From assembly GCF_003334335.1 (NCBI RefSeq), contig NZ_QOWQ01000150.1: a DNA stretch of 787 nt; one strand, given 5' to 3'. A program made the translations under genes and the position numbers. Every line of letters begins with the position of its first letter. Positions within the stretch are counted from its first letter, which is position 1. The stretch is from Escherichia coli. Lineage in GTDB: Bacteria; Pseudomonadota; Gammaproteobacteria; Enterobacterales; Enterobacteriaceae. The notes below the pieces were generated by a model that made no database searches, was not told where the DNA came from, and was given only the letters and a program-made list of their open reading frames with translations. Shown one piece after another: positions 1 to 342 of this stretch.

Positions 1-342
1 GTTAGTGCTGATCCAGAGTTGCGTATTAAGGTCGTGAAAGCTGTGATCGAGCAGCACATGTCCCTTAATCAGGCTGCTGCTCACTTTATGCTTGCTGGTA
101 GTGGTTCTGTAGCCAGGTGGCTGAAGGTCTATGAAGAGCGCGGAGAAGCTGGTTTACGCGCGCTCAAGATTGGCACCAAAAGAAACATTGCAATATCAGT
201 TGATCCAGAAAAAGCGGCATCAGCATTGGAGCTGTCAAAAGACCGACGCATTGAGGATCTTGAAAGGCAAGTTCGATTTCTTGAAACGCGGCTTATGTAT
301 CTAAAAAAGCTGAAAGCCTTAGCTCATCCCACGAAAAAGTGA
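1..342 (+). CDS. insJ: IS3-family transposase OrfA (IS150 InsJ-like), C-terminal 113 codons; 5'-partial
   Basis: Frame +1 is open from base 1 to TGA at 340-342 and translates as [52 protein letters not shown]... with an HTH-like segment and a C-terminal leucine heptad ([21 protein letters not shown]). The ORF-track start at 19 is a TTG internal Leu codon, not the real start; the true start is upstream of the window. Confidence 0.88.
   Translation, partial: VSADPELRIKVVKAVIEQHMSLNQAAAHFMLAGSGSVARWLKVYEERGEAGLRALKIGTKRNIAISVDPEKAASALELSKDRRIEDLERQVRFLETRLMYLKKLKALAHPTKK

Follow-up and report, generated by a model that had tools for sequence, protein, structure and literature searches.

The programmed frameshift of IS150 lies at the end of a three-heptad repeat common to OrfA and OrfAB

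Results

The window is an internal piece of IS150

The DNA analysed here, a 787-nt stretch from Escherichia coli referred to as the window, is 100% identical to IS150, with matches in 2841 of 5426 complete E. coli genomes. It is an internal piece of this element, which belongs to the IS150 subgroup of the IS3 family, and the original prediction had named that family correctly. IS150 is among the most active insertion sequences of E. coli, laboratory and production strains included. In RefSeq the element carries one joined CDS, 'IS3-like element IS150 family transposase, programmed frameshift' (L001, 1021–2390). The window opens with the complete OrfA codon 61, and the 3′ part of insA/orfA, residues 61–173 with the UGA stop at 340–342, occupies positions 1–342 of the + strand, as given by translation and by 100% identity to annotated IS150. 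Full-length OrfA, taken from the ORF in L001, has 173 aa. On the same strand the −1 frame (orfB) is open from 309 to the window end at 787, where it runs off the window; with the orfA stop ending at 342, the two ORFs overlap in the IS3-type manner. From nt 309 this frame reads as had been claimed for the OrfAB continuation, and the conceptual −1 fusion, OrfAB, is 456 aa long.

Pfam searches of OrfAB detected two HTH_28 domains, HTH_21, rve (E = 1e-28) and rve_2. HTH_21 and the start of the rve catalytic core fall in the orfB frame of the window; the protein has the IS3-type layout of an N-terminal HTH and a C-terminal DDE (rve) part, most of the latter lying beyond the window, in L001. The NCBIfam model NF033516, 'IS3 family transposase', scored OrfAB at 414.7 bits against a cutoff of 160. 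The HTH_28 domains stand in tandem in OrfA, at residues 10–60 and 68–116 (E = 1e-9 and 6e-9), the second corresponding to window positions 22–168, and the pair is a predicted bipartite DNA-binding region. When the OrfA model was compared with the PDB by Foldseek, only weak matches (E > 0.1) were obtained, to the bipartite HTH of the Pax paired domain, Tc3, Mos1 and SETMAR; these are uninformative on the zipper.

Copies of IS150 at 98–100% identity were also seen on short contigs assigned to a Collinsella MAG, Marinobacter, Alkalicoccobacillus and a Bacillota MAG (L002, L009, L010, L015). The Alkalicoccobacillus contig is 256 nt long with a coverage of 0.8, and all four are probably E. coli contamination, not true hosts. 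Separately, three IS150-subgroup elements (L018, L019 and L020, with OrfA identities of 94%, 58% and 56%) have the same left junction (~1240–1260), in the leading region of IncF plasmids downstream of psiA, which reads ...GTAGTTAATTTTCATTAACCCA outside the element and TG(T/C)ACTGCACCC inside it. The chromosomal flank of IS150 is similar, with ...TATCAACCC followed by TGTACTG (L001, ~965–975). A target preference common to these elements, or replacement in situ, may explain the junction.

The slippery site is followed by a conserved stem

The slippery heptamer A_AAA_AAG lies at 303–309 of the + strand in the correct X_XXY_YYZ phase, as read from the sequence, and RefSeq annotates a programmed frameshift. 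The frame-0 codons here are CTA (Leu161), AAA (Lys162) and AAG (Lys163), the first A of the heptamer being the third base of the Leu161 codon. Relatives were collected as DNA from 15 elements in genomes and plasmids, at OrfA identities of 24–100%; a scan of genome contigs gave 16 loci, mostly near-identical or incomplete, and the diversity came from plasmid tblastn matches. A_AAA_AAG is in phase in L001, L003, L018, L019 and L021–L025, and A6G is found at the same Y-L-K-K codons as far away as elements of Bacillus thuringiensis and Enterococcus.

A 6-nt spacer, CUGAAA (310–315, + strand), nearly invariant in eight relatives, separates the slippery site from a stem with 5′ arm GCCUUAGCUC (316–325) and 3′ arm GAGCUAAGGC (353–362), both on the + strand. 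RNA folding gives a perfect 10-bp stem with the OrfA stop in its loop. Across eight relatives 96.6% of the stem cells are paired, compared with 12–43% when the partners are slid, and compensatory changes occur at two stem pairs (UA to CG and CG to UA). Folded in full, positions 303–420 show no unusual stability (z = −1.56); the stem is supported because of its conservation and covariation, not its energy. A stable hairpin 4–10 nt past the motif is the rule for IS3-type −1 PRF (PMC4066793). The stem of IS150 begins 6 nt past the motif and is kept in relatives, and a stimulatory role is predicted for it.

The nucleotides of the stem also encode protein. The 5′ arm codes for A166-L167-A168-H169 in OrfA and S166-L167-S168-S169 in OrfAB, while the 3′ arm codes for the conserved E-L-R of the NELRQ motif in the orfB frame. 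Among five elements, positions 298–322 are one of the three most invariant 25-nt stretches of the gene (0.80 vs 0.49 overall), and the longest invariant run is 311–319. In L005 and L006, L167 is changed to Ser by a substitution that is silent in the −1 frame and matched by a compensating change in the stem. This pattern suggests that, of the three layers, the OrfA tail is under the weakest constraint. Because the tail codons are also the 5′ arm of the stem, the zipper cannot be assumed to be the sole reason why the LKAL tail is conserved.

Several further features of this region were noted. Leu167 is encoded in both frames (CCUUA, 318–321), frame 0 using the codon UUA and frame −1 the codon CUU, and the stem arm CCUUAG pairs with CUAAGG, where the orfB NELRQ motif has its Leu-Arg. 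A Leu read in both frames was scored in 10 of 10 relatives that shift at A6G or A_AAG, with OrfA residue 167 of L005 and L006 given as Ser; L026, whose shift site is U_UUA_AAA, does not have it. A second A-run, G_AAA_AAG (333–342), lies directly 5′ of the OrfA stop (AAA AAG UGA), and a GTG at 339–341 in the −1 frame, overlapping that stop, opens a 283-aa orfB ORF; both are inside the hairpin loop.

In four relatives with OrfA identity of 56–58%, CUA_AAA_AAG is replaced by CUN_CAA_AAG (L-Q-K), at 1981–1989 in L005, L006 and L008 and at 1781–1789 in L020, equivalent to window positions 301–309. These sites leave the A_AAG tetramer alone for slippage, with the spacer and the downstream stem fully kept, and one of them, L006, has a Pro in the zipper helix. 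The A_AAG tetramer is a recognised motif in IS3 elements (PMC4066793). The four may represent lower-efficiency frameshifting or decaying copies.

A three-heptad repeat ends at the slippery site

The canonical leucine zipper has the form L-x6-L-x6-L-x6-L (PROSITE PS00029). The heptad spacing of leucines pointed out in the original prediction is present in OrfA as L147, L154 and L161 (L-x6-L-x6-L), within a 21-mer that corresponds to residues 147–167 (nt 259–321). Register analysis, shuffles and conservation define three canonical heptads at 250–303 of the + strand, with I144, V151 and L158 at the a positions and L147, L154 and L161 at d. In this best register the core a/d positions are L, I, V or M in 6 of 6 cases across 21 OrfA residues. 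The a/d pair preceding the repeat is E137/K140. The four-Leu pattern is absent from IS150, position 140 being Lys and position 168 Ala in OrfA or Ser in OrfAB.

The slippery site and the repeat meet at one codon. The first A of the heptamer belongs to the last d-position Leu, and K162 and K163, at the e and f positions, are set by the AAA and AAG codons. The last g–e′ pair, R157–K162, is like-charged, which counts against a zipper; the Lys at this e position is imposed by the slippery codon AAA. The small number of heptads, three making a short zipper, also counts against a coiled-coil reading. In favour of it, hydrophobic a/d residues run over three heptads of a predicted continuous helix.

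Such a spacing might have arisen by chance in a segment rich in Leu and Lys and have no structural meaning, and the leucines taken by themselves are weak evidence to the contrary, since L-x6-L-x6-L occurred in 581 of 5000 OrfA shuffles (11.6%). The full 6/6 a/d pattern was rarer, at 206 of 5000 whole-protein shuffles (4%) and 29 of 5000 local shuffles (0.6%). A four-heptad window of 28 residues did no better than shuffles (1926/5000). The single-sequence statistics are only moderate, and the main support for the heptads is their conservation in relatives.

Heptads were compared in 11 of the 15 elements, anchored on the Leu of Y/F-L-K/Q-K/E and with positions counted from it; L013 (Treponema, 29% identity) was left out as its OrfA end is not interpretable. 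Hydrophobic residues were found at −17a in 8 and at −14d in 9 of the 11 elements, and at −10a, −7d and 0d in every one. Position −3a is hydrophobic in six and Asn in the rest, and the Asn of these distant relatives is the classic buried Asn of zippers. Beyond the anchor, +4a is hydrophobic in 0 of 11 in both products. At +7d, 7 of 11 OrfAs have V or I (IS150 has Ala), and every one of the 11 OrfABs has Ser. Protein homologues at 51–92% identity keep I144, L147, V151, L154, L158 (as L, V or I) and L161, and among them the e-position residues E148 and E155 are invariant and the g-position R143 nearly so. The retention of a/d positions in 11 elements down to 24% identity, together with a helix predicted at high confidence by AlphaFold2, strongly disfavours a chance origin of the spacing, which we regard as extremely improbable.

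OrfA and OrfAB differ only beyond the repeat

The AlphaFold2 models are monomers built from shallow alignments of 11–18 sequences, and they describe a helix, not a coiled coil. In the OrfA model a long C-terminal helix is predicted over residues 129–168 (205–324, + strand), with a mean pLDDT of 89–93 over residues 141–160. A heptad-repeat helix at the end of OrfA with the recoding site adjoining it had been proposed, and this predicted helix and the heptamer at 303–309 bear that out. The shift had further been placed inside the zipper. It does adjoin the helix, but it sits at the C-terminal edge of the canonical repeat. Similarly, the zipper had been described as shared in part: the two products do differ after K163, but all three canonical heptads are common to both.

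The OrfA-specific tail, residues 164–173 (310–339, + strand; translation and AlphaFold2), is predicted to continue the helix to A168, where it is broken by H169-P170. L164 and L167 of this tail fall on g and c, out of the a/d register. In OrfAB the junction A164-E-S-L-S-S169 (309–326, + strand, −1 frame; translation and AlphaFold2) is a predicted non-helical linker, the model showing a helix at 129–164, coil at 165–169 (ESLSS) and the next helix at 170–180. The xESLSS motif is kept in relatives. On these models the products would differ at most in that OrfA gains about one marginal helical turn where OrfAB has a Ser-rich linker. The claim that OrfAB exchanges a last heptad is overstated, as the a/d residues that would form it are K165/A168 in OrfA and E165/S168 in OrfAB, non-canonical in both. 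No solved structure of full OrfAB was found by sequence search.

The junction can also be seen in a database protein, P0015, in which the frames are fused by a change in A-run length and whose junction is the same as that predicted for OrfAB. Fused IS150 variants of this type read LKKAESL or LKAESL (P0008, P0015, P0065, P0081), and in one fused variant an internal deletion takes out the whole zipper together with the junction.

Comparison with IS911 and other elements

Vögele et al. 1991 (NAR 19:4377) reportedly described A_AAA_AAG and a downstream stem-loop in IS150, with the products InsA, InsAB and InsB. This is the same element as the window, and there is no difference between them at the DNA level. 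That work, which is cited in PMC4066793 and PMC5771124, is not known to relate the heptad register to the shift site.

The original prediction had invoked IS911, and the orfA of that element was recovered from a plasmid sequence, taken to be IS911 by its 100% identity to the query. Like IS150, IS911 has an HTH, a heptad helix and L-K-K encoded by YUA_AAA_AAG, with the shift directly after a d-position Leu and a zipper common to the regulator OrfA and the transposase OrfAB. OrfA of IS911 has one HTH, whereas that of IS150 has two HTH_28 domains. The d positions of IS911 are L−14, I−7, L0 and L+7. The last of these is Leu whichever frame is read, the OrfA sequence being ...LKKATALLM and the OrfAB sequence ...LKKGYRALD. 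Each IS911 product thus has four d residues and a genuine fourth heptad of its own, whereas IS150 has three, with Ala (OrfA) or Ser (OrfAB) at +7. As summarised in PMC3219604, Haren et al. 2000 demonstrated a four-heptad zipper in IS911 and aligned the putative OrfA zippers of 15 members from five subgroups, including the IS150 subgroup. In the IS3-family literature a frameshift within the last heptad is regarded as a general feature. The zipper of IS911 is needed for multimerisation, and zipper and M domain are needed for DNA binding (PMC2909936).

By analogy with IS911, the tails of OrfA and OrfAB could be alternative fourth heptads that tune homo- versus hetero-oligomers and so regulate transposition. 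The OrfA helix is indeed predicted to be four residues longer (168 vs 164), and in relatives L164 is invariant, L167 nearly invariant and the OrfA +7 residue V or I in 7 of 11; set against the Ser found at +7 in all 11 OrfABs, this is a systematic asymmetry between the products, and OrfA–OrfAB heteromultimers have been reported for IS911 (PMC3299598). However, in IS150 itself the OrfA +7 residue is Ala and +4 is Lys, L164 and L167 point to g and c, and OrfAB has no hydrophobic a/d residue after L161, so that its fourth heptad is absent rather than alternative. The Leu at +7 in both frames of IS911 has no counterpart here, and the zipper-end model of IS911, which had been extended to this element, is not directly transferable. 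The stem-compensated Ser at 167 in L005 and L006 likewise suggests an OrfA tail under less constraint, and an ISWco1-like relative without A6G at this place probably shifts after its +7 Ile. We consider a regulatory exchange of fourth heptads unlikely in IS150.

That ISWco1-like relative came to light through the PDB. In a search with the helix fragment alone, chain A of 8QNV ('Transposase', 51 residues) aligns to OrfA residues 137–171 with E = 0.005 and has matching a/d residues, LEQQVTYLQAKVAYLEKLDALIQ being aligned to IS150 OrfA. It corresponds to the C-terminal part of OrfA from an ISWco1-like IS3 element carried by an Apilactobacillus kunkeei plasmid (L029, 1047–1535); a literature search on 8QNV found no citing paper. 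This element has no A6G at its YLEK codons, its −1 frame stays open and its A-runs lie ~10 codons downstream. Its shift would probably follow the +7 Ile, so that the fourth heptad would be common to both products. Where the shift falls with respect to the zipper is therefore not universal.

In IS2, mutations at a, d and g positions of the zipper abolish binding and transposition (Lewis et al. 2011, PMC3219604). The 'leucine zipper-like' motif of IS2 also departs from the strict zipper pattern and is still functional, which provides a precedent for imperfect IS3-family zippers; Leu fills only two of its four d positions and Asn occupies an a position, whereas the three a/d heptads of IS150 are perfect and lack Asn. 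GCN4 and other bZIP proteins resemble IS150 in their hydrophobic a/d heptads with Leu at d, and the buried a-position Asn recurs in distant IS150-subgroup relatives. The bZIP zipper has at least four to five heptads after a basic DNA-binding helix, while IS150 has three after HTH domains.

The helix might alternatively be amphipathic for another reason, packing in cis on the HTH or orfB domains or contacting DNA, with LKAL kept by the RNA stem and dual coding alone. There are, after all, only three heptads and no four-Leu pattern, the tail nucleotides are the 5′ arm of a covarying stem read in two frames, and the Leu-rich N-terminal helices of ISCth4, which belongs to a different copy-out-paste-in family, form dimers in the absence of heptads (PMC7780238). 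Yet the a/d pattern, including the buried Asn, is kept over large distances when the surrounding residues are not, experiments show that IS911 needs the homologous region to multimerise and that IS2 needs its counterpart to bind and transpose, and the models predict a long, isolated helix. A role of this other kind seems quite improbable to us.

Discussion

Taken together, the data favour, with a probability of roughly 0.6, a reading in which the window carries the IS150 recoding cassette, placed at the C-terminus of a short dimerisation helix of three heptads. Ribosomes translating insA would meet A_AAA_AAG (303–309) with the 10-bp stem-loop 6 nt downstream. Some would terminate at the UGA (340–342) to give OrfA/InsA (173 aa), and others would slip by −1 to give the transposase OrfAB/InsAB (456 aa). 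Residues 1–163, which hold the two HTH_28 domains and the helix with its three canonical heptads, belong to both proteins. By analogy with IS911 and IS2, a parallel coiled coil is the most likely form of the helix, which would then mediate OrfAB–OrfAB, OrfA–OrfA and OrfA–OrfAB association. OrfA could regulate the transposase because this interface would be common to both proteins. Coiled-coil formation, oligomerisation and the regulatory role of the helix are all drawn from these related systems; a search of the accessible literature found no paper on oligomerisation of the IS150 proteins.

The frameshift would accordingly mark the end of the zipper, not split it. Past this point OrfA would add about one helical turn (L164, L167, A168), and OrfAB would pass through the ESLSS linker to its orfB-encoded domains. 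The extreme conservation of the region would arise because the same nucleotides act as slippery site, stem arm, OrfA tail and OrfAB linker.

A more speculative possibility, which we think rather unlikely, is that throughout the IS150 subgroup the shift gives the transposase a zipper cut after three heptads, while OrfA keeps an extra hydrophobic turn made of L164, L167 and the V, I or A at +7. If this were so, stability would decrease from OrfA–OrfA through OrfA–OrfAB to OrfAB–OrfAB, and this ranking would set how OrfA titrates the transposase. Frameshift efficiency and oligomer stability would then be forced to co-evolve, the OrfA tail being coded by the 5′ arm of the stem.

In the IS3 family it is already established that OrfA and OrfAB have the zipper in common and that the recoding site stands at its end. 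The refinement offered by the sequence comparison is that IS150 and its relatives do without the product-specific fourth heptad of IS911, the shift coinciding with the end of the canonical repeat. This is of little importance beyond correct annotation. It does advise caution in reading conservation of the tail as zipper function, as OrfA tail, OrfAB linker and stem arm are the same nucleotides. The pairing of OrfA with the transposase is of practical interest, IS150 being highly active in E. coli.
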